Shown here in pieces: positions 21,492-46,025 of a stretch of DNA of 64,000 nt. The notes beneath the pieces were generated by a model that was given only the letters and a program-made list of their open reading frames with translations, was not told where the DNA came from and did no database searches. Source of the DNA: Candidatus Amesbacteria bacterium (GTDB lineage Bacteria; Patescibacteriota; Microgenomatia; CAZETR01; Amesbacteraceae); NCBI GenBank assembly GCA_027371535.1, contig DAHXMV010000003.1, positions 8,047-72,046 on the forward strand. Direction: 5' to 3'. The position numbers and the translations under genes were made by a program. Within the stretch, counting starts at the first letter, position 1, and each line of letters starts with the position of its first letter.

Positions 21492-22311
21492 AAATGAATT
21501 GTGTATATATTGAAACCAAATCTTTTACAAAAGCTAAATCTTTCGGATCAGCTCCAGTAAATTCTACGATACTGGCTCCAACTACATTTTTACTTTCAAA
21601 CAGTTTTTTCAGCAACAGGACCAGCGCCTGTTTATTTAATCCTTTTTCTGCCGGCACACTTACACTCGTAAATTCTTTCGGATCGATGACGTCCAAATCC
21701 AGATGGATATAAATGTTTTGTGAAGTTATTTGTAAAATCTTTTTTACTGCAACATTAACGTCATAATTAAATTCCCGGGTAGTAAATATCGGAATATTAT
21801 TTTCCTGAATAAACTGTTTTTCCGGAGGATCGGCATCTCTTAACCCTAAAAATACCACATCATTTGTAGTTATAAACGTCGATACCTGATTTAAGATCTC
21901 ACTGTCTCCCTGACCTAATAAGACCCGCAACGGCATTCCATGAAATGTTTTACTCGGGGAAGATACCGGAGTATTCAGATCCGCATGGGCATCCAGCCAC
22001 AAAACAGTCAGCTCTTTATTAAAATTTTTATAAAGGTAACTTATAGGAGCTATTTCGACACTACAGTCACCTCCGACTGTAAAAATCTTTTGGGGTTCAT
22101 TTTTTCGGATAATATTATTAACAGAAATCAGATTATTTAACAAAGCCGTGCGGTTCTGTATGTCTGATACCCGGTCAGAAGCATTTAAAGTTAATCCGTC
22201 AGGTGCAACAAAATTATATTTAGCTAATATACTATGTTTTATTAACTCTGCACCCTTATATATATCATTCTTCGGCCCGGAACCCTGCCATTGCGGGATA
22301 TATAAATACAT
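21478..22311 (-). CDS. arginase/agmatinase/formiminoglutamase-family ureohydrolase (atypical GGDCS)
   Basis: GGDCS in place of GGDHS, LDAHADL (DAHxD), HLDLDVIDP (DxDxxDP), SVPAEKGL. The His to Cys change is at a first-metal ligand position. Confidence 0.65.
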   Translation of the reverse strand: MYLYIPQWQGSGPKNDIYKGAELIKHSILAKYNFVAPDGLTLNASDRVSDIQNRTALLNNLISVNNIIRKNEPQKIFTVGGDCSVEIAPISYLYKNFNKELTVLWLDAHADLNTPVSSPSKTFHGMPLRVLLGQGDSEILNQVSTFITTNDVVFLGLRDADPPEKQFIQENNIPIFTTREFNYDVNVAVKKILQITSQNIYIHLDLDVIDPKEFTSVSVPAEKGLNKQALVLLLKKLFESKNVVGASIVEFTGADPKDLAFVKDLVSIYTQFIYGKI

Positions 22312-22400
22312 TTACAAAAAACGATAACATTATGACTTTTTGATTACAAATTTTCTCACTAGGATAAAACATAATCTGGGGGTTTGGAACTCAGTATTAT

Positions 22401-22901
22401 TTATATTCCCCTATTGCGGGAGATGAATCTATTTAAAAACTGAGCTGATTCAGCAACTTTTTGCTTTTGAACTTTTTCTGAAACCAAACCTTTTCGAAAA
22501 TAAAAGCCGCTTTTCAATTCTCCATCATATTCATAGCTTAATGTAGTTGCCAGTGGTGTCCCCCGTTTAATTCCTTTGGGGATAAGGTTATCCATTAAGA
22601 GATGGTCTGTAGTCAAGTGCTCCAGATAATGAGCTATAGTGAACTGGGAGCTGTCATTTTCTTCAGGTTCACCGCTACAGTTACCTTTTGCCCTAATGGA
22701 GGCCTGAAGCATTTTAAGTTCTTCCGAGGTCAATGATATTTTTTCATATATATTAAAAATGAGAGAGCTTGGAGGACAATGAGAGATAATATCTTCAGGT
22801 AAGGAGCCGAGTTTCCCCACTTCGATTTCAACAAAAACTGTCGTTGATAATGGTTCCTTAGATTCTGGTCCGACGGATAATTCATTCATATTTAATACCA
22901 C
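22401..22901 (-). CDS. hypothetical protein
   Basis: 166 aa. No motif recognised. Confidence 0.35.
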   Translation of the reverse strand: MVLNMNELSVGPESKEPLSTTVFVEIEVGKLGSLPEDIISHCPPSSLIFNIYEKISLTSEELKMLQASIRAKGNCSGEPEENDSSQFTIAHYLEHLTTDHLLMDNLIPKGIKRGTPLATTLSYEYDGELKSGFYFRKGLVSEKVQKQKVAESAQFLNRFISRNRGI

Positions 22902-22961
22902 ACCAAATATTTAAAATTTGTTAGATTTGATTAGTATTATATGCTTCATATCCTAAGAAAT

Positions 22962-23639
22962 TTACCAAATAAACGGAACCAAGCGGTATTTAACTTTCTT
23001 TTGGTATTCCTTGTAACCGGACAAATTCTTTGCTAAAAACCTCTCTTCTTCCAGCAGTCTGATAACAATAATGAACATTAAAGGAAGAACGGTAAACAGT
23101 CCCCACCAGAACCCGAGGGCCAGGGGGACTCCGATTAAAAATATAAACGCCCCGGCATACATCGGATGCCGGACCAGATGATACGGACCGGCGGTGACTA
23201 ATTTTTGATTTTTTTCTATTTCTATTGTCGCCGATGTATAAGAGTTAATTTTAAAAACCCTGTAGACAAGATAAAGTCCGAGTATAACCAGTACATCCCC
23301 AATAAATGCGGCGGTATCCGGGGTTTTAGACCAGCGGAAACGGTGATCCAGGGCGGGGAAAATAATGATTAAGATAAATGCCAGGGAAGAGAAGGATTGG
23401 ATCAACTTTTGCCGGGGTTGTTTTTCGGCTATCGGACCTGCCTGTGTTCTGCGCTCCAGAAGTTTGGGGTCGTATTTTAAAAGATACAGGGTTATCAATA
23501 ATGTGGACATCCCGAAAATTGTCAGAAATAACCAAGCCTGCCAGTAATCAAGTGTGCCCGCAGAGAAAAATAAAATGGCAGCCATGATTAACAGAAGAAA
23601 TAACAAACCCCCGAATGCCTTAAGTTTTAAGTGTTTCAT
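22962..23639 (-). CDS. isoprenylcysteine carboxyl methyltransferase (ICMT/PEMT)-family membrane methyltransferase
   Basis: ...TAGPYHLVRHPMYAGAFIFLIG...EEERFL... is the classic ICMT/phospholipid methyltransferase C-terminal motif. 5-6 TM. Confidence 0.7.
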   Translation of the reverse strand: MKHLKLKAFGGLLFLLLIMAAILFFSAGTLDYWQAWLFLTIFGMSTLLITLYLLKYDPKLLERRTQAGPIAEKQPRQKLIQSFSSLAFILIIIFPALDHRFRWSKTPDTAAFIGDVLVILGLYLVYRVFKINSYTSATIEIEKNQKLVTAGPYHLVRHPMYAGAFIFLIGVPLALGFWWGLFTVLPLMFIIVIRLLEEERFLAKNLSGYKEYQKKVKYRLVPFIW

Positions 23640-23817
23640 TGTGGCTTTCCATTGCCTGCCTGATTAATGACGAGGATATTTTTAATGCCTTAATTCTTGG
23701 TAAAAGCAGTGTATATTGAGAGGTCCCTTGTTTTAACTTTGGCTGCACCTTTTCACATTTGCTTATCGTCGAATCTATAGACCGGAGAGCTTCTTCCAAT
23801 TCTTCTTTGGTAAACAC
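23620..23817 (-). CDS. small hypothetical protein (65 aa)
   Basis: ORF only. Overlaps the start of the ICMT-like gene by 20 bp. Confidence 0.25.
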   Translation of the reverse strand: MFTKEELEEALRSIDSTISKCEKVQPKLKQGTSQYTLLLPRIKALKISSSLIRQAMESHNETLKT

Positions 23818-23843
23818 ACGGAAAGTATATCAAATATCAGACA

Positions 23844-24326
23844 CTATCCGGGGTTTTGAAGAAAGAGAACCAGACCGAGGAGAAAGAGGAGGGTGCTGGC
23901 AAGAAGGGCTGTCAGAACCGGGCCGATCCAGGGGACAGGCAAAAGAAAAAAGATATCAGGATCCAGCAAAGTTTTGGGCCAGCCAATGAGGATTTTGAGA
24001 AAAACGTAGTAGAAAATATCCCACAGGGAAAAAGCAATTAAAAAAGCCCCGATTTTGGATTTTATATTTTTCCCGGCGAGTAAACCCACAGTTACAAGCA
24101 TCACCATGGTGGCAAATTCCCGGAACATTTCAGTCACAGTAGTACGGGCAGAAAGTAGGACCGGAGCAGAAAACTGAACAAAAGAAATAAAGCCAAGGTT
24201 TAATAAGACTGTGACTCCGGATGGCGGATAAGCGGGGAGAGAGCTCCGGAGATAGACAACCACGGCGGCTTCGACATAGGCAAAAGCCACAGAAAATAAA
24301 CAAAGGGAAACTAAACGGGATTTCAT
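23844..24326 (-). CDS. hypothetical polytopic membrane protein
   Basis: 160 aa, 4-5 hydrophobic helices. Sits immediately downstream of the oxidoreductase gene. Confidence 0.4.
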   Translation of the reverse strand: MKSRLVSLCLFSVAFAYVEAAVVVYLRSSLPAYPPSGVTVLLNLGFISFVQFSAPVLLSARTTVTEMFREFATMVMLVTVGLLAGKNIKSKIGAFLIAFSLWDIFYYVFLKILIGWPKTLLDPDIFFLLPVPWIGPVLTALLASTLLFLLGLVLFLQNPG

Positions 24327-24334
24327 AACCTGTT

Positions 24335-25849
24335 TTAAACAAAACCGGGGAAAAAGTCCGTAATAATTTGTCTTTGGGGAATTCCCAGATCGGACAGGGT
24401 GCGGGTAAATCCGGTGACCAGGGTATGCGGGCCGGAAAGATAAAAAATCCGCCGGTTATAATCGGGTATAAGTTTATTTATCATTTCAGAACCGATCCGA
24501 CCGGTCTGGCCGGTCCAACCGGCCGGAATTTGGGCTGTATCCGTCAGAGTGTAGATGATTTTTATTCCCAGGGATTGGGCGGCATCAAAGACATCCCGGT
24601 AAACAATTTCATCAGCGGTCCGATTGGAATAAAGCAAAACAATATCACGCCGTTCCCCTTTATCTATTAAAAACTTCAGCATGCTTCTAAAAGGGGTGAT
24701 GCCGATACCACCGGCCACAAAAACTAATTTCTGGGATTTATCCCGGGGTAAAGTGAAATCACCGGAGAGCTGGGCCCCGACAACCGGGGTATGGGGGTCC
24801 ATTTTCAACATCGCTTCCTTGAAAGAACTGCCGGGATGGTTAAATTTGATACCCAAACGCAGATTATCCTCAGTGGGGGAAGAAGCCAAAGTGAAATAAC
24901 GCCGGTTACCACGGTCGTCAATCTGATTATGCGGTAAAGTCCATTCCATGTATTGTCCGGGCCGGTAATTAATAGGCCGGCTTAATTTAAAGACAAAGTC
25001 ATAAGTGTCGGGGGCAATCAGAATTTTATCCGTCAGGTGCAGGATGAGCTTCTGTTTCGGGCTGACGAGATAGGAGAAAATATTGCCCATGACTAAAGCA
25101 ATTTCGGGAGTGGTATAAAAACCTCCCACGTGAAACTGCGGGGCAAACAGGACTCCGACGATGACGGCATAAGCGATCTGCAGGGATTTGACCGGAGGGG
25201 TAGTCAGGGGTTCGGTCAGCATGACAAAAGCAAAGAAAAACAGGGAGGAATGCAGGACCGCATCGGCCAAAGCAGTCGGGAGACTGTGACCGGATAAGAA
25301 AGTAAAGGCAGACATGGTCAAAAGAGCCGATAAAAAGAAGTAAAACAGCATATCCTCCCGGCGGATTTTCCGGGCGACCAACAAGCCACCAACGACCACC
25401 ACCGGCATCAAAGGCAAATTACCCACCCACCAGCTGGCTGACTGATTGAAACCAATGGAAGTCAGGACAACGGCAATAGCTACCGGATTAAAAACATGCT
25501 TGCTGCCAATAGCCAGAATATATTTGGAAGACATGGCCAGAATGGCCACCCAGGCCAGCCAGACCAAATCCGAATATTGCTGAATGGGGGTGACAATAAG
25601 CGCCAATATCAAAGCCGTAATGTAGACCGATTCGGCATTGGTGGGAGCCCTAAAAACCCGGGAAAAAAGAGCATTAACAATTAATGACACAGCTACCAGA
25701 AACAGGGCGGAAAAAGCGATCGACCAGGGGTTATATGGCAGCAGGTTGAAATAACCCAGCACCCCGGCAGCCACCAGCATGACTATCAGGTAATACAGTA
25801 CCAGGCGGTACATGGTGGTGCGATTTAAGAATGAGTCTATGAAATCCAT
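24335..25849 (-). CDS. membrane-anchored FAD/NAD(P)-binding oxidoreductase (FNR-like C-terminal domain fused to N-terminal polytopic membrane domain; NOX/ferric-reductase-like)
   Basis: C-terminal RRYFTLASSP (RxYS FAD motif), GGIGITP (NAD(P) motif), YLSGP. N-terminal about 250 aa has 6 or more TM helices, including one helix with H-x13-H (SGHSLPTALADAVLHSS), the spacing of the ferric-reductase-domain heme ligands. Confidence 0.6.
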   Translation of the reverse strand: MDFIDSFLNRTTMYRLVLYYLIVMLVAAGVLGYFNLLPYNPWSIAFSALFLVAVSLIVNALFSRVFRAPTNAESVYITALILALIVTPIQQYSDLVWLAWVAILAMSSKYILAIGSKHVFNPVAIAVVLTSIGFNQSASWWVGNLPLMPVVVVGGLLVARKIRREDMLFYFFLSALLTMSAFTFLSGHSLPTALADAVLHSSLFFFAFVMLTEPLTTPPVKSLQIAYAVIVGVLFAPQFHVGGFYTTPEIALVMGNIFSYLVSPKQKLILHLTDKILIAPDTYDFVFKLSRPINYRPGQYMEWTLPHNQIDDRGNRRYFTLASSPTEDNLRLGIKFNHPGSSFKEAMLKMDPHTPVVGAQLSGDFTLPRDKSQKLVFVAGGIGITPFRSMLKFLIDKGERRDIVLLYSNRTADEIVYRDVFDAAQSLGIKIIYTLTDTAQIPAGWTGQTGRIGSEMINKLIPDYNRRIFYLSGPHTLVTGFTRTLSDLGIPQRQIITDFFPGFV

Positions 25850-25856
25850 AAATTAT

Positions 25857-26606
25857 TCAGCTTTTGGTAAGGTCATAGTCGGGAAAATTTGAAGTTTCGG
25901 TGCCGATGCCGTCTTTGTCTATCATATACCCGGCAAAACCCGGTAAACTCCCGATAAACCGGATACCGTCTTTGCCCATAGCAAAGGCCGCCGTGGCAAA
26001 GCGGTCAGCCTCATAGATATCCGGTCCGACAACCGTCAGGCTGACAATTTCCGTGATGGGCTGATCGGGTTTTTTGGGGTTATAAATATGCTGGCCGCGC
26101 AGGTAAGTTCCGGAAGTGGCCACTCCTTCTTCGTTAACCTGGAGAGCTTTGACGATCCGGCGGCGGTCAAAAGGATTTTCGATACCTATCCGCCATTTTT
26201 GTCCACGGGAATTTAATCCATGAACCTGGATATCTCCCCCGGCGTCAATATAAAAATTTTTAAAACCGCGGTCTGTTAAAATCCCGGCGGCATTTCTGAT
26301 GGCCCAGCCCTTCACCAAACCGGAAGGATCCAAATGGCCAAACCTGTCTATTTCAAAATAACCAAAGGTAGCTTTATTAGTCCGATCGCAGAGATTTAAA
26401 ACCGTCTGCATATCCGCACTGGCGTCGGAAATTTTCAGCCGACGGTTATTAATTTGGCTGATTTCGCTGGAGTCTTTATAGGGACTGAACTTATTGTCAA
26501 CGTAAGTAAAATAATCATAAACCAGGTTCAAATCGGGCAAGCCGGCCCCGGTATCGACAATTCTGACAGTGACGGGCATACCCATCAGCAAACGGGTGTC
26601 TTCCAT
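25857..26606 (-). CDS. apbE: FAD:protein FMN transferase (ApbE/Ftp family)
   Basis: ...LLMGMPVTVRIV... (the MGT-like start of mature ApbE), ...PSGLVKGWAIRNAAGIL... (the GIAKGYAVD equivalent), ...GVATSGTYLRGQHIYNPKKPDQPI... The longer ORF to 26891 adds 95 aa of non-homologous sequence that overlaps the upstream gene, so I chose the internal Met start. Confidence 0.75.
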   Translation of the reverse strand: MEDTRLLMGMPVTVRIVDTGAGLPDLNLVYDYFTYVDNKFSPYKDSSEISQINNRRLKISDASADMQTVLNLCDRTNKATFGYFEIDRFGHLDPSGLVKGWAIRNAAGILTDRGFKNFYIDAGGDIQVHGLNSRGQKWRIGIENPFDRRRIVKALQVNEEGVATSGTYLRGQHIYNPKKPDQPITEIVSLTVVGPDIYEADRFATAAFAMGKDGIRFIGSLPGFAGYMIDKDGIGTETSNFPDYDLTKS

Positions 26607-26611
26607 AAAGT

Positions 26612-27079
26612 TTATCTGGCCTGATTTAAGGCTGAATCCAAAGACTGAATAAAAGCCAGACTGGAGTCCGTGGCGCCGGAGATGATATCGACCTGGGCAC
26701 TCTGGGCCTGGATAGCTTCCGACCTTAAATAAGGCATAGCCTGCTGGTTTATCATAATCGAGCGGGAGCGGTCGTTGGGATACTGCAGAAACTGGACGTC
26801 GGTTAACCTGCCGCCGGAGACCACCGCCTGTACCTGAATATTGCCGTAAAAAGCATCGGCAACGGAGCCGGTATAAGTCCCGTTTTTCCAACCGGAAGAC
26901 GCCGGAGCGGCAGTCGGAGATGACAGCACCGGGGTACCGGTGGCGGCATCCGTCGTCGGAGTGGGGGGAGGGTTACCAGCCTGGGGGTCGGGAATCTGAG
27001 CCGGAGCGGTTTTTTTACCAAATAATGAAAACAGGATAAAGGAGACAATTACGGAAAGAGAAAGAGAGAGTTTTTTCAT
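26612..27079 (-). CDS. secreted FMN-binding domain protein (flavinylation substrate, SGAT motif)
   Basis: Signal peptide MKKLSLSLSVIVSFILFSLFG. Pro/Thr-rich linker. FMN_bind-like core GTYTGSVADAFYGNIQVQAVVSGGRLTDVQFL... Flavinylation motif DIISGATDSS. Confidence 0.7.
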   Translation of the reverse strand: MKKLSLSLSVIVSFILFSLFGKKTAPAQIPDPQAGNPPPTPTTDAATGTPVLSSPTAAPASSGWKNGTYTGSVADAFYGNIQVQAVVSGGRLTDVQFLQYPNDRSRSIMINQQAMPYLRSEAIQAQSAQVDIISGATDSSLAFIQSLDSALNQAR

Positions 27080-27192
27080 AGATGAAGGTGAAGATAACAG
27101 GGTAATCTGAGAAGCGGCTTGGAAATAACTTATGAATATTAAATGTGAGATTAGCTACATTCATTATATATGCCCGGAAATAAAATGAGATC

Positions 27193-27567
27193 ATGAATGA
27201 TAATAACCCCAAGGGGAATAAATTAACCCCGGAGGAAGAAAACGTCATTGTTTTTAAAGGGACAGAGCCTCCGGGGACGGGAGAGTATGAGGACTTTTGG
27301 GAGCCCGGGGTATATGTGTGCAAAAGATGCGGATCCCCGCTTTACAAATCGGAGAGTAAATTTGACGCCAGGTGCGGCTGGCCGAGTTTTGACCAGGAAC
27401 TCCCCAAAGCAGTCAGCAAGACCATTGACGCGGACGGGGAGAGAGTAGAGATCAGCTGTGCCAAATGCGGAGCCCATCTGGGGCACGTGTTTACCGGAGA
27501 AGAACTGACACCGACCAATGTGCGCCATTGTGTCAACTCGATTGCCATGAAGTTTGTACCAAAATAG
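27193..27567 (+). CDS. msrB: peptide-methionine (R)-S-oxide reductase MsrB
   Basis: CxxC...CxxC zinc site (CKRCGSPL...CAKCGAHLGHVF) and catalytic RHCVNSIAM motif. Confidence 0.85.
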   Translation: MNDNNPKGNKLTPEEENVIVFKGTEPPGTGEYEDFWEPGVYVCKRCGSPLYKSESKFDARCGWPSFDQELPKAVSKTIDADGERVEISCAKCGAHLGHVFTGEELTPTNVRHCVNSIAMKFVPK

Positions 27568-28045
27568 AAAATTAAAATCGATTTATGAATTGGGATTTAT
27601 GATTTATGAAAAAGACAGAAACGGCAGTTTTCGGAGGGGGTCAACCGACAAACCGGGCTATGAGACAGTCGGCGTGGGGATAACCGGTCATGCCAAAGTA
27701 GTACGGATTGAATTTCAGCCGGAGATAATCAGTTTTAAAACTTTATTAGAGGTATTTTTTGAACTCCATGACTCAACAACTTTAAACCGACAGGGGGCGG
27801 ATGCAGGAACACAATACCGATCGGTAATACTATTTACCAATGACAAACAAAAAACCGAAGCGGAAAAGTATAAAAATAAAATCCCGAATTCAAATACCGA
27901 AATTATAAATTTGGATAAGTTTTATCCGGCTGAAACTTATCATGAAAACTACTATGAAAAAAATTCCGACTATCCATACTGCCAACTGGTGATCTCCCCG
28001 AAACTGAACAAGCTCCGGCAAAAATTCGAAAACCTACTTTCTTAG
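27554..28045 (+). pseudogene. msrA: MsrA-like (peptide-methionine (S)-S-oxide reductase) lacking the catalytic GCFWG region; probably disrupted
   Basis: C-terminal two thirds match MsrA (TGHAKVVRIEF, FFELHDSTTLNRQGADAGTQYRSVI, PAETYHENYYEKN). The canonical N-terminus MKKTETAVFGGG sits in the +1 frame (27606-27683) and stops after 25 codons. About 25 codons spanning the CFWG catalytic Cys appear to be missing. Confidence 0.5.
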
Positions 28046-28272
28046 TTTGTGGCGGCTTTCCAGATCGGTGAAGTAAAAACAGACCAAAAATATTAGGATT
28101 TCTCTTCCGAAGACTACGATGTTCGGATGTGTAAGCCGGTGTTTGTAAATATTCCAGACGAAAAAATTGATCACACTTAAGAGGATGAACACCATACCGG
28201 ATTTGGGAATGAAAAACCAAAAATCAAACATACTTGTAAACGAGGTAACCTGAATGTTACATTGATATGTAG

Positions 28273-28891
28273 CATGGAAGCAAAAAGCGAGTTTGCATCC
28301 CTGTCCGATCTGGCGCTGGCCAAAGGCATAGCCCATTCCGATTTAATTTCGGAAATCCACCAGACCATTCTCCTCTCTTACAGGGAGAGATATCCGGACA
28401 GTCCGGTGGGAGTAGCCGTCTATGTGGATGAATTAACAGGTAATGTGAGAATTTTTTCGGGGGACAGGGATATCACCCCTGAGAATTTTGCAGCCGAGGC
28501 AGCCCAGATGGCAAGACAGCTAATTATTGCCAAACTGGGAGAAGAGGTAAAAAAAGGACCCCAGCCAACCAGACCAGTCATGGTATCAAGCAGGCAGAGG
28601 GGGGTACCTTCGATTCTGGCAAATTTATTCTTCTGGGGTTATAACATCTACTTTTTGTTTTTTATCGGCCTGATGATCTTGTCTTTTGTGTCTAGCGGCT
28701 GGAACCAAATGGGAGATTACCTGAGGAATCTGGGAGCATTCCGGGTGTTGCTGTTTGTAATCATGGCGGCGACACCGGCCGGAGCAGTGTGGTGGTCGAT
28801 CAAAAAGCATTTATACCGAACCCCCCGACCCTTTTACAGCTATTTTTTCTGTTTGAATTGCCGATACTGGGAGTGGCATTTTTACCGCTGA
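28273..28891 (+). CDS. hypothetical membrane protein (soluble N-domain plus 3-4 C-terminal TM)
   Basis: ATG at 28273 (the track's 28262 start is a TTG). No confident motif. Confidence 0.4.
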
Positions 28892-31515
28892 CGGTGAGCA
28901 CTCAAATTACCCCGTTTGTGATGTTACTCATACTCCTAGCCTTAATGTTACCGGGAGTATTTTACCTGTACAAAAACAATGTCAGCATGAACCTGAACTG
29001 GCTAAAGGCGTCCTTATTTATCCATCAGTTTGTTTTTGTGGGCGGGGCTTATCTGGTATTTTTGTTTACCTTTATCGTACCCATAATTTTGGGCGCGGCA
29101 GCCCAAAGCCTGGTAGGAGACCAATTGGCGGCGATTTTTTCTCCGCCGGTGTATAACAATTATTTGTATTCTTACACTCCCGTATCGGGATCCATTGTGC
29201 AGCTGGGTTTCGGGCTGCTGATTTTGTTTCTGATATTCGGAGTCCTGCTCGTGCCCTATCTGTTGCTGACAGTGCTGTGGCGGGCCCTGGACAAAGCCCG
29301 GCGGAAACTGGCGGAAAAGCTGCCGGCTAATGATTTGTTTTCCATGGAAGCGATTTTTGCAGCTTTGATAATAACCGTCTCCCTGATTGCGTCCTACCAG
29401 CCGGCCGGCAATAAAATGCTCGATAAACTGGTACAAATATCCGGGTATACAAATTTTGCAGACAAAGAGAAGGCAGCCGCAGGTCTTAACCCCAATGAAG
29501 AAAAACTCCGACAGGTGATAAGCGACCTGGAGACAGCCAGATACAGGTATTTAATGTCCAAGGATGACACGGCCCTGAAATACAGCTACGGAGAAATTTT
29601 ACATTTCGGTGACGGTCTAAGCGGGGCAATCCAGAGCGTATTTTTAACCGCCGCATATCCGTTAGTCTATCAGGGCAGTTCGGACAGAGACCAGAAAATG
29701 GCAGCTAATTTTTACTACCTGTTCGGATATTATCCGGACAGTTCAAAACAGACAGCCAGCAGCCCGATAATCAAGGAAGCCAGAAACGTGCTGCTGTCTT
29801 ATAAAAATGTGAAAGTGGAGACAGATAAAGACGGGCTGACAGCCAAAGTTACCATAACGGAAGAGTATGAAAACAAAACTTACAGCCAGCAGGAAGTGAG
29901 TTATGAGTTTTCATTGCCCATGGGGGCCGTGATGACGGATCTAAACCTGGGGCCGAACCTGGAATTTCCCGGAGTGATTGCTCCCAAGGGAGCGGCCCAA
30001 AGTACGTATCAAAGGGAGCTTCAAATCGGCCGTGATCCGGCACTTTTGGAAGAAACCGGTCCGCACCAATACCGGCTGAGAATTTTCCCCATTCCGTCAA
30101 AAAGCGATCTGGCCACACTTTCAGGGAGAAACCAGAAAATGAGTTTTTCATATACGACCGAACTGACTCCGCAGGGATTTCCCTTGCCCAACGTAACCAA
30201 AAAAACCAATGTCTATGCCAACGCCGGTACGGAGTATGTGTTGACAATAAACGGCATTAATCTGGCCCTTAGCGGGTCCGATCTGTTTGTAAAAGCAACA
30301 GATAAACCCTTACCAGATTTATGCCAGGGAAATATTATCCCCGCAAATAATAATTTGGTGCTGAACGTAAATTATCCGGAACTTAAGAATTTGGTGTGTG
30401 CCAAACCCGAAGAAATTATCAATAATATTTCCGGAGCCAAAATCGCCATCATTTATGACGTATCGTATGACAATAAATCCCCCGCCCTGGAAGCGCAGCT
30501 GGGGCTATTGGGCAGAAGCAGTACATTCTTAAAAAATAACCAGGTGGATTTGTATAAATACAACGATATGCTAAGTCCCAAAGTCAGCCTAAGCCAGGGG
30601 AATTTTGCCAAAGAAACCAAATTCACATATTTCGGGCACAGCAATGGCCTGAAAGCCCTGGGATACTTTAACGAAAAATATGATCTGGTAATGATATTCC
30701 CCGGGAAAGATGCCCTGGCACAGGAAGATAATCTGCCGTTTGCTTCCCCGACCCAAATTTTTGTAATTCTTCCCCAGGCCGGGTCCATTTCGCTAAAACT
30801 GGAAAGCCGGTTATTGCAGACGCGGGGAGATATTACCAATACCGTAACCGGGGCACTGAAAGAATTCGGACTGCAATATTATGCCTCCAAATCGATTCAA
30901 GACAGCTATGTACTGAATGATTACCTGTCCATATTATTACCCAAACAACCGGAAGGTGCGTTTCCCACACCAGTGGGCCCAGATACTCCCCTGGCAAATC
31001 TGGTGAACCTGGGGTTATACCGGACACAAGCTGCCAATACCCTGACAAATATTTCCGCGGACGTACCGACGATGGATAAATTTAACGCCTTTGCCCAGAC
31101 AGCCGGCATTGCCACGCCATATTCGTCCTTTATAGCCCTGGTGAATTTCAGCCAGCAGATGAGGCTGCAACAGTTGGAGCAGGGATACAACCGATATGAA
31201 GAACAAACACCTGCAGGCTTTACGGGGCCTATCGGAAATCCTATTCAACCGGGAATTCTTTATAACAGAGGGCCAGTTTTTAGTCCTGTGAGTTCATTAT
31301 TCGGAACAGATTTGATGACGGTAAATCTCGGGAGTACCGGAGAATCGGCTGGCAGATCAAAATTCGGGGGAATAAGTAACCCGTACTTAGCAGCAGCCCC
31401 GGCACAGGGATCAATACTGTCCGGCAACAACCTGTTTGTGTGGGTAAATATAGTGCTGTTAGCGGCAGGACTGGGAATATATCTGGTAAGAATGCTCCGG
31501 AAGAAAACAGAATAA
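28789..31515 (+). CDS. large membrane protein: N-terminal polytopic region, extracellular VIT/vWA-like region, C-terminal TM anchor
   Basis: About 200 aa with 5-6 TM at the N-terminus (true start probably near 28918). FSLPMGAVMTDLNLGPNLEFPGVIAPKGAAQSTYQRELQIGRDPALLEE... resembles VIT domains. AIIYDVSYD... resembles a vWA MIDAS start. C-terminal NNLFVWVNIVLLAAGLGIYLVRMLRKKTE anchor. Confidence 0.4.
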   Translation: MVVDQKAFIPNPPTLLQLFFLFELPILGVAFLPLTVSTQITPFVMLLILLALMLPGVFYLYKNNVSMNLNWLKASLFIHQFVFVGGAYLVFLFTFIVPIILGAAAQSLVGDQLAAIFSPPVYNNYLYSYTPVSGSIVQLGFGLLILFLIFGVLLVPYLLLTVLWRALDKARRKLAEKLPANDLFSMEAIFAALIITVSLIASYQPAGNKMLDKLVQISGYTNFADKEKAAAGLNPNEEKLRQVISDLETARYRYLMSKDDTALKYSYGEILHFGDGLSGAIQSVFLTAAYPLVYQGSSDRDQKMAANFYYLFGYYPDSSKQTASSPIIKEARNVLLSYKNVKVETDKDGLTAKVTITEEYENKTYSQQEVSYEFSLPMGAVMTDLNLGPNLEFPGVIAPKGAAQSTYQRELQIGRDPALLEETGPHQYRLRIFPIPSKSDLATLSGRNQKMSFSYTTELTPQGFPLPNVTKKTNVYANAGTEYVLTINGINLALSGSDLFVKATDKPLPDLCQGNIIPANNNLVLNVNYPELKNLVCAKPEEIINNISGAKIAIIYDVSYDNKSPALEAQLGLLGRSSTFLKNNQVDLYKYNDMLSPKVSLSQGNFAKETKFTYFGHSNGLKALGYFNEKYDLVMIFPGKDALAQEDNLPFASPTQIFVILPQAGSISLKLESRLLQTRGDITNTVTGALKEFGLQYYASKSIQDSYVLNDYLSILLPKQPEGAFPTPVGPDTPLANLVNLGLYRTQAANTLTNISADVPTMDKFNAFAQTAGIATPYSSFIALVNFSQQMRLQQLEQGYNRYEEQTPAGFTGPIGNPIQPGILYNRGPVFSPVSSLFGTDLMTVNLGSTGESAGRSKFGGISNPYLAAAPAQGSILSGNNLFVWVNIVLLAAGLGIYLVRMLRKKTE

Positions 31516-41777: not shown

Positions 41778-42065
41778 ATGGAGACGGCAAATCATCATCA
41801 CGCAGACAGCCGGAACACAACCCTGCACCGGCTGAAAATTGCCAAAGGACACCTGGAAAAAGTTATCAGAATGCTGGAAAACAACGAATACTGTATTGAT
41901 ATATTAATTCAATCCCAGGCGGTACAGGCAGCGCTGAAAAATACGGATGCAATAATTTTGGAAAATCATCTGAAAACCTGTGTAGCTGATGCCGTCAGGA
42001 GTAACCAAAAAGATAAAGCCATAGACGAAGTCATGAAAGTTTTTAAGAATTCCAAAAAGAATTAA
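41778..42065 (+). CDS. csoR: CsoR/RcnR-family metal-sensing transcriptional repressor
   Basis: RLKIAKGHLEKVIRMLENNEYCIDILIQSQAV...ENHLKTCV. The x-Y-C...H-x3-C fingerprint of Cu(I)-sensing CsoR. First gene of the cop operon. Confidence 0.7.
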   Translation: METANHHHADSRNTTLHRLKIAKGHLEKVIRMLENNEYCIDILIQSQAVQAALKNTDAIILENHLKTCVADAVRSNQKDKAIDEVMKVFKNSKKN

Positions 42066-42066
42066 C

Positions 42067-44181
42067 ATGCCCGCCCAAAGACTTAATATCTCAATTTCCG
42101 GGATGCACTGCACCTCCTGCGCCCAGTTAATTCAGAGATCCGTGGGTAAAATTCCGGGAATTGCCGAGGTTAATGTCAGCTATGCCAACGAAAATGCCCT
42201 GGTAACGGCTGACCCGGCCAAAGAAAAGGAAATCATCGACAGGATTAACAGTATGGGTTACCGGGCAGACCTGATCACGGATCAAACACTCTCTTTGACA
42301 GAAAATCGACGACAGGCAGAGCTATCCACAATTAAAAGAAAATTTATAATAGCAGCCGTGTTGTCCGCCCCAATAATGTTTGTGCCGGCAATATACGGTT
42401 TAGGACTGTCAACCCTTGTGCAGTTATTTATAGGCAGGGATTTCTATAAAGGGGCCTGGTCGGCTCTGTTAATGAAAACATTTAATATGGATTCGTTAAT
42501 AGCCATCGGGTCCACAACTGCTTATGTTTTCAGCCTGATAAACCTGGCAGCGGGAAAAGGAGAGTTGTATTTCGAAACCTCAGCCTGGCTGATTACTTTT
42601 GTGACCCTGGGAAAATGGCTGGAAGCCAGAGCTAAAGAAAAAGCTTCTGAGGCGGTGAAAAAACTGGTCAAACTCCAACCCAAGACTGCCAGGGTAATTA
42701 ACAAGACTGAAGAAACAGATATGGAATTGGATAAAATTCAGCCGGGAGACATCATCCTGGTTAAACCGGGGGAGACGATACCGCTTGACGGAGTGATTAC
42801 CGATGGCCAAACCACAGTAGACGAATCCACGATTACCGGCGAGAGCGTCCCTATAGATAAAAATACCGGGGACGGAGTAACCGGCGGGACGATTAACCGA
42901 TTGGGGGCTTTTGAGTTTAAAGTAACTCATACAAGCGAATCAACGACTTTGAAAAAAATTATCCGGATGGTGAGTGAAGCGCAAAGCTCCAAAGCGCCGA
43001 TACAGGCCATGGCTGATAAGGTTTCAGCCTGGTTCGTGCCGGCCGTAATCGGGGTGGCCGTATTGACGTTTGTTTTCTGGATAGTCTTTGTCCAGGCCTC
43101 TTTAACAACTTCCCTACTGGCTTTTGTTTCGGTGATAGTTATAGCCTGTCCCTGTGCTTTGGGATTGGCAACACCGACAGCAATCATGGTGGGTACGGGG
43201 GTGGGGGCAAAAAACGGTATTCTGATCAAGGGCGGAGAACCGCTGGAAATCGCGAGCAAGGTGGATACCGTGGTTTTTGATAAAACCGGGACCTTAACAA
43301 TGGGGAAGTTAACAGTCACTGACATAAAACCACTAACTACAGGCATCAAACCGGAAGAAATATTAAGAATAGCAGGAAGCCTGGAGAGACAATCCGAGCA
43401 TCCGATCGGCAAAGCAATTTATGAATATGCTTTCGTGAAGACAAAAATTCTTGAAGTGAACAATTTTATAGCCGTTCCCGGAAACGGCGTTCAAGGCCGG
43501 ATCGGTAATCAAGAATATTTCTTGGGAAAAGATAATAATCCGGAAACAAGAGAATATGAGGAGCAGGGAAAAACAGTGGTGACACTCAAAAAAAAGGGCC
43601 GGAATTTAGCTTTGATTGCACTGGCAGATCAAATCAGGCCGGAAAGCAAAAATACCGTAAACATTCTTAAAAAGATGGGTCTGAAGATAATGATGATCAG
43701 CGGCGACAATTACCGGACTGCCAAAGCCGTGGCTGATAATCTGGGTATTGATGAGGTATTGGCGGGGGTTAAACCGGATGAAAAAGCGGGTGAAATTAAA
43801 AAGATCCAGTCTGCCGGTCATACCGTAGCCATGGCCGGAGACGGGATAAATGATACACCGGCTATGGCAGCCGCTGATGTGGGGATTGCCATGGGTTCCG
43901 GAACGGACGCGGCGATAGAAACGGGAAATATAGTACTATTGAAAAATGATTTGCCCGGCATTTATAAAGCTTTAAAACTGGCAAAGATGACCATGAACAA
44001 AATTAAACAAAATATATTTTGGGCGATGATTTATAACCTGACCGGTATTCCCATAGCGGCCGGGGTATTGGCCGGTTTCGGCCTGGTACTCCGACCGGAA
44101 CTGGCCAGCCTGGCAATGGCGATGAGTTCGGTGAGCGTGGTAACCAATTCATTAAGGCTGAAAAATATCCGGCTGGACTAA
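42067..44181 (+). CDS. copA: copper-translocating P1B-type ATPase
   Basis: N-terminal HMA GMHCTSCAQ, TM6 CPC (ACPCALGLATP), DKTGTLT, GDGINDTPAMAAADVGIAMG. Confidence 0.9.
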   Translation: MPAQRLNISISGMHCTSCAQLIQRSVGKIPGIAEVNVSYANENALVTADPAKEKEIIDRINSMGYRADLITDQTLSLTENRRQAELSTIKRKFIIAAVLSAPIMFVPAIYGLGLSTLVQLFIGRDFYKGAWSALLMKTFNMDSLIAIGSTTAYVFSLINLAAGKGELYFETSAWLITFVTLGKWLEARAKEKASEAVKKLVKLQPKTARVINKTEETDMELDKIQPGDIILVKPGETIPLDGVITDGQTTVDESTITGESVPIDKNTGDGVTGGTINRLGAFEFKVTHTSESTTLKKIIRMVSEAQSSKAPIQAMADKVSAWFVPAVIGVAVLTFVFWIVFVQASLTTSLLAFVSVIVIACPCALGLATPTAIMVGTGVGAKNGILIKGGEPLEIASKVDTVVFDKTGTLTMGKLTVTDIKPLTTGIKPEEILRIAGSLERQSEHPIGKAIYEYAFVKTKILEVNNFIAVPGNGVQGRIGNQEYFLGKDNNPETREYEEQGKTVVTLKKKGRNLALIALADQIRPESKNTVNILKKMGLKIMMISGDNYRTAKAVADNLGIDEVLAGVKPDEKAGEIKKIQSAGHTVAMAGDGINDTPAMAAADVGIAMGSGTDAAIETGNIVLLKNDLPGIYKALKLAKMTMNKIKQNIFWAMIYNLTGIPIAAGVLAGFGLVLRPELASLAMAMSSVSVVTNSLRLKNIRLD

Positions 44182-44185
44182 AAAT

Positions 44186-45217
44186 ATGAATAATACAAAT
44201 CTGATCACCATTTTTCTTACCGGCTTACTGACCGGAGGACTGACCTGTATGGCTGTCCAGGGAGGATTATTAACAGCTACCCTACTGGCCAGCGAGAAAA
44301 CCGATATTAACAGCGGGGTGAAAAACGGGAAGGCGATACCGATTCTGGCATTTTTAGGGGCTAAACTGGCTGCCTACACCATTTTGGGATTTTTTCTGGG
44401 ATGGGTAGGGTCATTTTTCCAAATTTCACTTTGGTTACGGGTGGTGATGCAGATTTTGGTGGTATTTTTTATGCTGGGTACGGCCTTAAGTATTTTAGAA
44501 GTACACCCGATATTCAGATATTTTGTGATTACGCCGCCCAGATTTTTGACCCGGTGGATCAGACAACAATCCAAGAATCAGGGCATGTTTGCCTCTACCT
44601 TTTTGGGGGCCCTGACCATTTTTATACCCTGCGGAACAACCCAGGCCATGATGGCTCTCTCAGTGGCGTCCGGAAAACCCGTAACCGGAGCCCTGGTGAT
44701 GGCAGCATTTATTCTGGGCACATCACCGATATTTTTTTTACTGGGGTACCTGGCTACCAAACTGGCAGACACCTTCCAAAAAAATTTCATGCGGGCGGCG
44801 GCCTGGGCAATTATACTGCTGGCCATATTCAACCTGAACAATGCAGTGGCCTTAACCGGCAGCCGGCTGACCCTGGAAAATCTGGCCAAAAATATTTATT
44901 GTACCGTCAGCTGGTGTAAAGACAATCAGCCGCCTACAGCAATCACAGCCAGTGACAAATTAAACCTGACTATTCAGTCAGGCGGTTATAACCCGGACAG
45001 ATTAACAGTCAAATCGGGAAGCCGGGTGACCCTGCATATACAAAACCGGGGCGGGACCAGCTGCATCCAGGCATTTACCATTCCCTCCCTGGGCATCCAA
45101 AAAGTGATACCAAATAATACCGAAGCGGATATTACTTTAGATATTCCAAACCAAACGGGAGAAATTCCCTTTATGTGCAGCATGGGAATGTATCGGGGGG
45201 TGATTCAAGTCATATGA
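44186..45217 (+). CDS. polytopic membrane protein (DsbD_2/TauE-like permease fold) fused to a C-terminal cupredoxin-like domain; probable copper-handling protein
   Basis: 6-8 TM with intramembrane Cys (GGLTCMAVQGG; IFIPCGTTQAMMAL). C-terminal about 100 aa (...VTLHIQNRGGTSC...FMCSMGMYRGVIQVI) has a cupredoxin-like H/C/M ligand pattern. Ends in an ATGA overlap with copZ. Confidence 0.45.
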   Translation: MNNTNLITIFLTGLLTGGLTCMAVQGGLLTATLLASEKTDINSGVKNGKAIPILAFLGAKLAAYTILGFFLGWVGSFFQISLWLRVVMQILVVFFMLGTALSILEVHPIFRYFVITPPRFLTRWIRQQSKNQGMFASTFLGALTIFIPCGTTQAMMALSVASGKPVTGALVMAAFILGTSPIFFLLGYLATKLADTFQKNFMRAAAWAIILLAIFNLNNAVALTGSRLTLENLAKNIYCTVSWCKDNQPPTAITASDKLNLTIQSGGYNPDRLTVKSGSRVTLHIQNRGGTSCIQAFTIPSLGIQKVIPNNTEADITLDIPNQTGEIPFMCSMGMYRGVIQVI

Positions 45218-45435
45218 ACAGCAGGATAAAATTCAAAATCTCGGGCATGCACTGTGTCAGCTGCGCTTTGAATATAGACGGAGCACTGGAAGACACACCC
45301 GGCGTAACAGACGCCAGAACCAATTTTGCCAAAGCAGTTACCGAAGTCAATTTTGATAACAGTAAAATTGACGCGGGGCAAATCAAGACGGTAATAACAA
45401 ATTCAGGATATAAGGCGGATGTAATCGAAAGTTAG
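45214..45435 (+). CDS. copZ: heavy-metal-associated copper chaperone
   Basis: MNSRIKFKISGMHCVSCALNIDGALEDTPGV... carries the GMxCxxC metal-binding motif. About 73 aa. Confidence 0.75.
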   Translation: MNSRIKFKISGMHCVSCALNIDGALEDTPGVTDARTNFAKAVTEVNFDNSKIDAGQIKTVITNSGYKADVIES

Positions 45436-45450
45436 AAACCTTTTTTTGGT

Positions 45451-46025
45451 TTATTCCAGTTTATAGCCGAGACCATGCACAGTCTGAATCAGCGGCCTTT
45501 CCTGACCGATAGTAATTTTCCACCTGATTAAAGCTATAAATACGTCGGCTATATTACCGGGACTATGATAGTCATAATCCCAAACCTGCTCCAGGAGGGT
45601 GTGTCTGTCAACTACTTCTCCCCGGTAATGTAAAAGATATTCCAGAACGGGGAATTCCTTGGGGATCAGAGCAATCCGGCGCTTAACCCGGGAAACAAGA
45701 TGAGCAGCCGGATTAATCTCCAGGTCCCGATACGTTAACACCGGCAGAGGGTTCCGTCCGGGCTGGCCGGCCGGGTTTTTTGTTTTTCGGCCAAAATCAG
45801 GATGGGAGTCCGGAAATGATCCTGACGAAGCCTTTTATAGACAGTCAAACCGTCGATTTTGGGCAGGAAAGCATTGATAACAGCTACATCATATGCCCCC
45901 TCATCTGCCAGTTTCATACCAGTTTCTCCGTCGTGTGCCTGAACAACCTGAAAACCGAAATCCGTCAAACCCCGGGAAATAATATTTGATAAGCGAGGCT
46001 GATATTCCATTAAAAGAATTCTCAT
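45451..46025 (-). pseudogene. OmpR-family response regulator: degenerate receiver plus winged-helix, split by a frameshift in an A-run
   Basis: ORF 45735..46025 is a receiver N-half lacking the acidic pair (EY instead of DD) and the phospho-acceptor Asp (VAVINAFLP instead of LxLLDxxLP). ORF 45451..45741 is an OmpR wHTH (LTYRDLEINPAAHLVSRVKRRIAL...LGYKLE). The two frames join at GAAAAACAAAAAACCC. Receiver alpha4-beta5-alpha5 appears to be absent. No histidine kinase nearby. Confidence 0.55.

Follow-up and report, generated by a model that had tools for sequence, protein, structure and literature searches.

A probable flavin-only NAD(P)H dehydrogenase module of the NQR/RNF-like class, with a leaderless ApbE, in a Candidatus Amesbacteria contig

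Three adjacent genes in a 64,000-nucleotide stretch of contig DAHXMV010000003.1 from a Candidatus Amesbacteria bacterium (the window, by which the whole of this stretch is meant) probably encode the two subunits of a transmembrane NAD(P)H dehydrogenase that works with flavins only and belongs to the NQR/RNF-like class, and the flavin transferase that serves it. The open reading frames (ORFs) of the locus and its neighborhood were assigned by hidden Markov model (HMM) searches with Pfam and NCBIfam. The first gene of the triad (26612..27079) codes for a 155-residue NqrC/RnfG-like subunit with a domain for binding flavin mononucleotide (FMN; FMN_bind, PF04205), and the second (25857..26606) for a 249-residue ApbE-type FAD:protein FMN transferase (PF02424; FAD, flavin adenine dinucleotide). 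The product of the third (24335..25849) is a 504-residue fusion, in which an NqrB/RnfD-like membrane domain recognized by PF03116 and by its fold (residues 1-266, 25052..25849) is joined to a cytosolic FAD and NAD(P)H domain resembling those of NqrF and of ferredoxin-NADP reductase (FNR; residues 267-504, 24335..25051; PF00175, PF00970). All lie on the minus strand, in a series of four head-to-tail ORFs (23844..27079) that are separated by 5, 7, and 8 nucleotides, successively. An earlier reading of the bare sequence (the original prediction) had placed three co-directional genes at 24335..27079, with the ApbE gene directly after that of the FMN_bind protein, and both of these points are borne out.

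Modules of this kind have been described before. The fusion of PF03116 and PF00175 domains within a flavinylation gene cluster defines the “NQR/RNF-like” systems, described chiefly in Actinobacteria and the Candidate Phyla Radiation (CPR) by a survey that counted 127 clusters and read them as devices for one-way electron transfer (Méheust et al., 2021, eLife, PMC8238504). The NQR/RNF-like complex of Ktedonobacter racemifer has been modelled by AlphaFold-multimer; its NqrB/RnfD-like subunit has lost the flavinylation site, and a non-covalent pocket in the NqrB-like protein was proposed to be sampled by the covalent flavin of its NqrC-like partner (Huang et al., 2024, PMC10979944). The window triad has the same architecture, with a PF03116-like domain, a fused PF00175 domain, adjoining FMN_bind and ApbE genes, and a flavinylated NqrB/RnfD Thr that is not conserved, having been lost in both. 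It differs from the published systems in nothing of kind, being a Microgenomates-like CPR instance whose PF03116 match falls just under threshold, and two Ktedonobacteria homologs (loci L008 and L011) are 55% identical to its fusion protein and have the same gene order. The named best matches of the AspRS encoded in the window come from Microgenomates, Woesebacteria, and other Patescibacteria, which marks the host as a CPR bacterium. Membership of the triad in this bioinformatically defined class is well supported, and the identity, architecture, and class of the cluster as a whole can be given with high confidence. With the 2021 survey, the three-part combination cannot count as undescribed.

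By homology to NqrF, NAD(P)H would be oxidized at the FAD of the cytosolic domain of the 504-residue protein, and by homology to NqrB and RnfD the electrons would pass into the fused ten-helix domain. That domain presumably holds a non-covalent flavin and/or accepts the flavin of its partner in a vacated pocket, because its own covalent-FMN loop has been lost. Electrons would then reach an FMN attached covalently to Thr137 of the anchored NqrC/RnfG-like subunit at the outer face and, in a final transfer, some extracytosolic acceptor, with ApbE serving as the maturation enzyme that would install FMN from FAD. The direction of electron flow, the cofactors of the membrane domain, the acceptor, and ion coupling are matters that we infer. 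The original prediction, too, had at its core a self-contained path that leads from NAD(P)H to a covalent flavin outside the cytosol; it is supported here, and the same model has been published (PMC8238504, PMC10979944).

The triad is conserved in at least five phyla. Scanning GTDB species, each represented by one genome, yielded at least 459 confirmed loci, 80 of which were fetched and are the basis of all counts out of 80 given here. By their labels, 36 of these come from Patescibacteria lineages, 11 from Alphaproteobacteria (Mesorhizobium, Kaistia, and others), 8 from Chloroflexota (including Dictyobacter and Ktedonospora), 4 from Spirochaetota, and 3 from Actinobacteria (Agreia, Herbiconiux), while 18 are uncertain or other (8 metagenome-assembled genomes labelled Gammaproteobacteria/Pseudomonadales, 8 unclassified, and 2 others). 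According to iterated HMM searches over all ORFs of these loci, ApbE is present in 67/80 and FMN_bind in 69/80, and the order FMN_bind, ApbE, RnfD/FNR fusion is found in 64/80, with representatives in CPR, Chloroflexota, Alphaproteobacteria, Actinobacteria, and Spirochaetota. Of the loci in which ApbE or FMN_bind had no match, about half have a fusion gene that lies close to or at the end of a contig; in the rest, the missing gene was not found nearby. The fusion itself has more than 7,600 homolog clusters at 90% identity, mostly from Patescibacteria and most of them with both PF03116 and PF00175, and several homologs bear names at source such as “RnfABCDGE type electron transport complex subunit D” or “ferredoxin-NADP reductase / RnfD / NqrB”. 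With a membrane-domain profile, 583 representatives were collected at 50% identity (E<=1e-30, mostly 480-515 residues). Together with the 459 or more species-level loci, this suggests that the 127 clusters of the 2021 survey greatly understate the size of the family.

Several lines of evidence identify the membrane domain of the fusion. Residues 1-266 match PF03116 (NQR2_RnfD_RnfE) at E=3.7e-6 and 27.0 bits, and most homologs bear a precomputed match to this family. About ten helical segments between residues 13 and 262, rather than the six or so transmembrane helices of the original prediction, are seen in AlphaFold2 models both of the full 504-residue protein (predicted local distance difference test, pLDDT, 84.4) and of residues 1-266 alone (pLDDT 84.1, predicted TM-score 0.82). 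Full-length Foldseek searches were dominated by matches of the FNR domain, and residues 1-266 were re-predicted and searched separately. Each of the top 15 PDB matches was then a chain of RnfD or NqrB (E 1e-5 to 1e-3, TM-score 0.57-0.76), including the RnfD chains 9eri_D (E=1e-5, TM-score 0.71) and 8rbq_D (TM-score 0.76) as well as NqrB chains of Vibrio cholerae; urea and Rh transporters came next, at E>0.3, and no cytochrome b, NADPH oxidase (NOX), or ferric reductase chain was among the 50 matches. An hhalign comparison with Escherichia coli RsxD gave E=1.8e-5 over residues 154-258, i.e., over the C-terminal half only, a span that includes the signature LTEPLTTPP opposite LTDPVTAST of RsxD. 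This signature and KHxFNP are the motifs of the membrane-domain family.

What the domain lacks is equally informative about its cofactors. When E. coli RsxD was added to the family alignment with MAFFT --add, KHVFNPVAIAVVLTSIGFNQSASWWV of the window protein paired with the 25-residue RsxD stretch just before the periplasmic loop, and the loop itself (~85 residues, around 144-228, with the flavinylated T187 in DGISQATPL) aligned to a gap in the window family. The loop being gapped and the 504-residue protein being devoid of any [ST]G[AS][ST] motif, Thr137 of the FMN_bind protein would be the only flavinylation site of the cluster. The Pfam search returned no PF01794 match at E <= 0.01, and residues 1-266 contain neither the H-x13-H spacing of heme ligands on which the original prediction had relied nor a conserved bis-His pair. 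Only H118 (29/29) and H240 (27/29) are conserved among the His residues of the domain (H118, H188, H200, H240), and both are in loops; moreover, the 504-residue protein has no Cys at all. Heme and Fe-S centers are therefore unsupported, which leaves flavins as the only plausible redox centers. With PF03116 matched and PF01794 absent, the modelled fold makes the domain RnfD/NqrB-like and not ferric-reductase/NOX-like, as it had been called.

The cytosolic part of the fusion is more easily recognized. PF00175 (NAD_binding_1) matches residues 377-479 of the 504-residue protein at 57.2 bits, with a gathering score of 22, and PF00970 (FAD_binding_6) matches weakly, at 19 bits. The best PDB sequence matches of residues 267-504 are the FAD/NAD domains of NqrF, cytochrome b5 reductase, and the reductase domains of flavohemoglobins, and Foldseek superpositions on b5 reductase and NqrF have TM-scores, normalized to the target, of 0.7-0.8. 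The match to NqrF spans its FAD/NAD domain only, and the 2Fe-2S ferredoxin domain of that protein is absent. An FNR-like C-terminal domain had been anticipated and stands, including its motif GGIGITP (within AGGIGITP); the RxYS motif read with it does not, since RRYFTLAS, with the equivalent variant R-x-F-T, stands in its place. The C-terminal residue is aromatic.

The partner subunit is the probable extracytosolic flavin carrier. Its PF04205 match scores 29.9 bits, above the gathering score of 22, and a profile of its FMN_bind domain recovers 8p2a_A, a solved structure of an FMN-binding domain, at E=2e-21. As originally described, an N-terminal hydrophobic helix (residues 4-20) is followed by a Pro/Thr/Ala-rich linker and by a compact C-terminal FMN_bind domain that ends in DIISGATDSS, where Thr137 of D131-I-I-S-G-A-T137 is the predicted site of flavinylation; this D-x-x-[ST]-G-A-[ST] motif at the C-terminus is kept across the family. 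The N-terminal helix is present throughout the family members of related loci, and for this reason the window protein is more likely to be membrane-anchored than freely secreted, as it had been labelled. Its N-terminus combines a positive-inside hydrophobic helix with a possible A-P-A cleavage site. In the family, the flanks of the anchor have a mean net charge of +1.94 on the N-terminal and -0.15 on the C-terminal side, with the N-terminal flank the more positive in 63/71 members, which predicts an N-in/C-out orientation. Actinobacterial and some other members (L074, L077, L079, L059) have a lipobox and are therefore exported.

It is the transferase that does not fit the usual scheme. ApbE proteins that serve exported substrates are typically lipoproteins. 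The window ApbE is readily assigned (PF02424 at 130.6 bits; E=3e-19 with the solved ApbE structure 3pnd_A) and would transfer FMN to Thr137 in the Mg2+-dependent manner of ApbE enzymes, but it has no signal peptide, lipobox, or transmembrane segment, with a maximum 19-residue hydropathy of 1.07. Its start is the ATG at 26606, 5 nucleotides past the FMN_bind stop, so that the product begins MEDTRLL (MEDTRLLMGMPVTV...), and the resulting 249-residue protein is identical to that of independent public gene calls. A 344-residue ORF opening at a TTG inside the FMN_bind gene was also considered and was overruled by this ATG and by the public gene calls. The cluster ApbE is likewise leaderless in 66/66 related loci where its N-terminus is retained. 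In the window and in these 66 loci, the longest possible ApbE ORF opens about 7 residues before the first β-strand, with the consensus M-K/R-x-T-R-x-x-MGMPITVE, and in the related loci this start is found within a few nucleotides of the FMN_bind stop or overlapping with it; where a longer ORF exists, as in a few cases, its extension is non-hydrophobic and overlaps the gene upstream.

Direct support thus exists for the domain identities, the fold, the operon structure, the loss of the RnfD loop, the absence of heme and Fe-S ligands, the conservation of the triad, and the outward anchor of the FMN_bind protein. Against a dehydrogenase that delivers electrons to an extracytosolic flavin weigh the following points. 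The PF03116 score of the window protein is 0.7 bits short of the gathering score of 27.7, and its membrane-domain sequence profile reaches solved RnfD in the PDB only at a weak E=0.013. Contact between the two subunits is taken from the published multimer model. A literature search found no biochemical study of any NQR/RNF-like member, as had been surmised for this combination, and in the 80 loci no conserved acceptor gene stands next to the triad. Finally, an export signal on the cluster ApbE is seen in 0/66 loci, and so uniformly leaderless a transferase is a poor fit with flavinylation of an extracytosolic domain after its export.

Three readings of the leaderless ApbE are possible: flavinylation may take place in the cytosol and precede Sec export, ApbE may be exported by an unrecognized route, or the FMN domain may itself be cytosolic. 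The last of these amounts to a different view of the module, in which the FMN_bind domain faces inward and is flavinylated by the leaderless ApbE, and the complex reduces an acceptor in the membrane or at its cytosolic face, such as quinone, as in the second half of NQR, with no export of electrons. In its favor are the lack of any leader or membrane segment on ApbE in the window and the 66 loci, and the cytosolic location of FAD, the substrate of ApbE. Opposed to it are the positive-inside, N-in/C-out anchors of most FMN_bind members and the lipoboxes of the actinobacterial and other ones, as well as the low-complexity Pro/Thr/Ser linker, a stalk typical of surface proteins. Patescibacteria are generally without quinones, which also counts against it. 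In its favor again, cytosolic pairs of ApbE and FMN_bind domain are known, and cytosolic ApbEs have been reported only for cytosolic substrates, e.g., the FMN_bind domain of Klebsiella fumarate reductase (PMC12052999). On the other hand, homology puts the vacated pocket at the outer face, which is where the FMN domain is docked in the published multimer model (PMC10979944). An inward-facing module is accordingly considered unlikely. As for the order of events in an outward-facing one, it is tentatively suggested that the dedicated ApbE of NQR/RNF-like systems is a cytosolic enzyme that flavinylates the NqrC-like subunit before or during export, or else that ApbE has a second role at the cytosolic face. 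The texts searched make no mention of the mismatch between a leaderless ApbE and an exported substrate. Flavinylation before or during export might, if true, be a new order of events for ApbE substrates with a function outside the cell.

It may also be asked whether the main purpose of the module is energy conservation, NAD(P)H-driven electron flow being coupled to the translocation of Na+ or H+. The homology of the membrane domain to NqrB and RnfD of ion-translocating complexes and the conserved charged or polar residues in or beside it, such as E73 and E213, speak for a pump, which could coexist with outward electron transfer. Set against this, NqrD/E and RnfA/E homologs are missing from the cluster, and the published interpretation is one-way electron transfer (PMC8238504), so that ion pumping as the main purpose appears quite improbable.

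The NOX/ferric reductase superfamily has a six-helix Ferric_reduct domain with two bis-His heme sites, in which the His pairs are 13-14 residues apart. The heme bundle of the original prediction, a ferric-reductase/NOX/MsrQ-type di-heme or mono-heme b-type cytochrome relaying FNR electrons to the flavinylated protein, is effectively refuted by the missing PF01794 match and H-x13-H spacing, by the restriction of conserved His to two loop residues, by the domain-only fold search, and by the KHxFNP and TEPxT motifs, even though NOX enzymes do fuse FNR-type domains to heme bundles, SpNOX and DUOX appear in the full-length Foldseek search (through the FNR domain only, with whole-alignment root-mean-square deviations of 18-26 Å), and MsrQ-like/NOX-like flavinylation clusters with PF01794, FAD_binding_8, and NAD_binding_6 alongside FMN_bind and ApbE exist (PMC8238504).

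The outward-facing flavin module can be placed among its better-known relatives. With Na+-NQR of V. cholerae it shares the NqrB fold, the FAD/NAD domain of NqrF, and an NqrC-type covalent FMN installed by ApbE. Unlike Na+-NQR, it is without NqrA, NqrD, NqrE, and the 2Fe-2S domain, its NqrF-like domain is fused directly to the NqrB-like one, and the latter is about 150 residues shorter than V. cholerae NqrB and devoid of the T236 loop; the path of electrons, a semicircle to quinone in Na+-NQR, is proposed to run one way outward here. RNF (RnfABCDGE, or RsxABCDGE in E. coli) provides in RnfD the best structural match, and the RnfD motifs NPFNP and TDPVT are kept as HxFNP and TEPLT, but RnfA, B, C, and E and the ferredoxin-side Fe-S subunits have no counterpart, and the loop with RsxD T187 is deleted. 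Pfam and NCBIfam searches of ten neighboring ORFs gave no match to NqrD/E or RnfA/E, the full NQR/RNF subunit set thus being absent, and the Cys-free fusion offers no equivalent of the Fe-S centers of the canonical complexes (2Fe-2S in NqrF, 4Fe-4S in RnfB/C). The MsrQ-like/NOX-like clusters follow the same logic, from NAD(P)H through an FNR domain and a membrane domain to a flavinylated extracytosolic protein; their membrane domain is a di-heme b bundle, in contrast to the RnfD/NqrB fold of the window protein, which is without heme ligands. Lastly, in the flavin-based extracellular electron transfer of Listeria monocytogenes (Ndh2, EetA/B, DmkA/B, FmnB, PplA), NADH electrons also reach an ApbE-flavinylated FMN_bind protein at the surface. 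That route depends on a quinone (demethylmenaquinone, DMK) and uses a lipoprotein ApbE (FmnB) and the lipoprotein PplA, whereas the window module proceeds without a quinone step, and its ApbE is leaderless.

The genes that flank the triad vary. Elsewhere it is often accompanied by a pair of histidine kinase (17/80) and OmpR-type regulator (16/80) and by a MacB-like ABC transporter (15/80), and occasionally by metal transporters of the NRAMP (3/80), P-type ATPase (3/80), or ZIP (2/80) types; loci with such neighbors include L003, L006, L013, L032-L043, L046, L062, L064, L073, and L083, among others. In the window, none of these genes is adjacent to the triad. An iron- or metal-related role has been suggested for the systems (PMC8238504), and the recurrent neighbors hint at compatibility with such a role without pointing to an acceptor.

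In the window, the small polytopic ORF downstream and the divergent msrB and msrA upstream are where the original prediction had placed them, but neither appears to be a partner of the triad. msrB (27193..27567) and an msrA remnant (27554..28045, with a fragment at 27606..27683) lie on the plus strand upstream of the FMN_bind gene. The same divergent arrangement is found in L084, the closest relative with a long contig (67% identical), and MsrA or MsrB is near the triad in only 2-3/80 loci; being shared with L084 and rare elsewhere, the arrangement is a matter of lineage-level synteny, and a general functional partnership was rejected. The window msrA, moreover, appears from its sequence to be a pseudogene: its N-terminal piece MKKTETAVFGGG and the remainder are in different frames, about 75 nucleotides for the catalytic GCFWC region have been lost, and GHAK stands in place of the conserved GHAE. 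The ortholog in L084 is intact. The msrB/FMN_bind intergenic region shares short conserved blocks with L084, in an alignment of two sequences only, too few to interpret. A promoter and terminator scan of 22800..28300 gave no signal above that of shuffled sequence, and an Rfam scan of 22000..29000 found neither an FMN riboswitch nor another RNA element.

The fourth head-to-tail ORF (23844..24326, minus strand), which starts 8 nucleotides past the fusion gene, encodes a 160-residue polytopic membrane protein without a Pfam family. It had been thought that it might belong to the unit. Relatives of it occur in 1/80 triad loci, about 4 kb away in that case, and its family has unrelated neighborhoods in 3/3 other genomes, on which grounds it was rejected as a component. 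It belongs to a conserved hypothetical family of at least 930 members, mostly from Patescibacteria (CPR), with no Pfam domain. Farther downstream, past a 65-residue ORF, a PEMT/ICMT-family membrane methyltransferase (22962..23639, minus strand; PF04191, E=1.5e-15) recurs in only 2/80 related loci.

Other features of the window were noted in passing. At 28789..31515 on the plus strand, preceded by a 209-residue ORF with a weak NusA_N match, is the gene of a 908-residue multi-pass membrane protein with a VIT domain (PF08487), which resembles the PEP-CTERM-associated integral membrane family TIGR02921 at E=3e-51, below the cut-off of that family. An apparent copper-handling cluster, recognized by eye from the translations, occupies 41778..45435 on the plus strand and comprises ORFs for a 95-residue CsoR-like protein, a 704-residue P-type ATPase with a GMHCTSCA metal-binding N-terminus, a 343-residue membrane protein, and an 86-residue HMA-like protein. 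At 45451..46025 on the minus strand, two adjoining 96-residue ORFs resemble a single OmpR-type response regulator split into its receiver and winged-helix halves; their N-terminal sequences, on which the judgment was made, suggest that this gene is frameshifted or truncated.

Patescibacteria, which account for much of bacterial diversity, are commonly regarded as fermenters that have no electron-transport chain. Most plausibly, the module regenerates NAD(P)+ and/or feeds reducing power to the cell surface, for the reduction of metals, flavins, or quinones or for redox repair in the envelope. A widespread flavin wire from NAD(P)H to the surface would give these bacteria an outlet for reducing equivalents or a means to reduce extracellular or host-derived substrates, and because no member has been characterized biochemically, the class is a reasonable target for experiments. 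The locus itself is one more instance of a published class; what goes beyond published work is the size of the family in Patescibacteria and the leaderless ApbE, the one feature of the locus that raises a new testable question. If flavinylation does take place in the cytosol, FAD export would no longer be needed, which may explain why, in the reduced and transport-poor genomes of Patescibacteria, this module is common relative to systems with a secreted ApbE; in that event, it may be the main membrane redox device of these bacteria.

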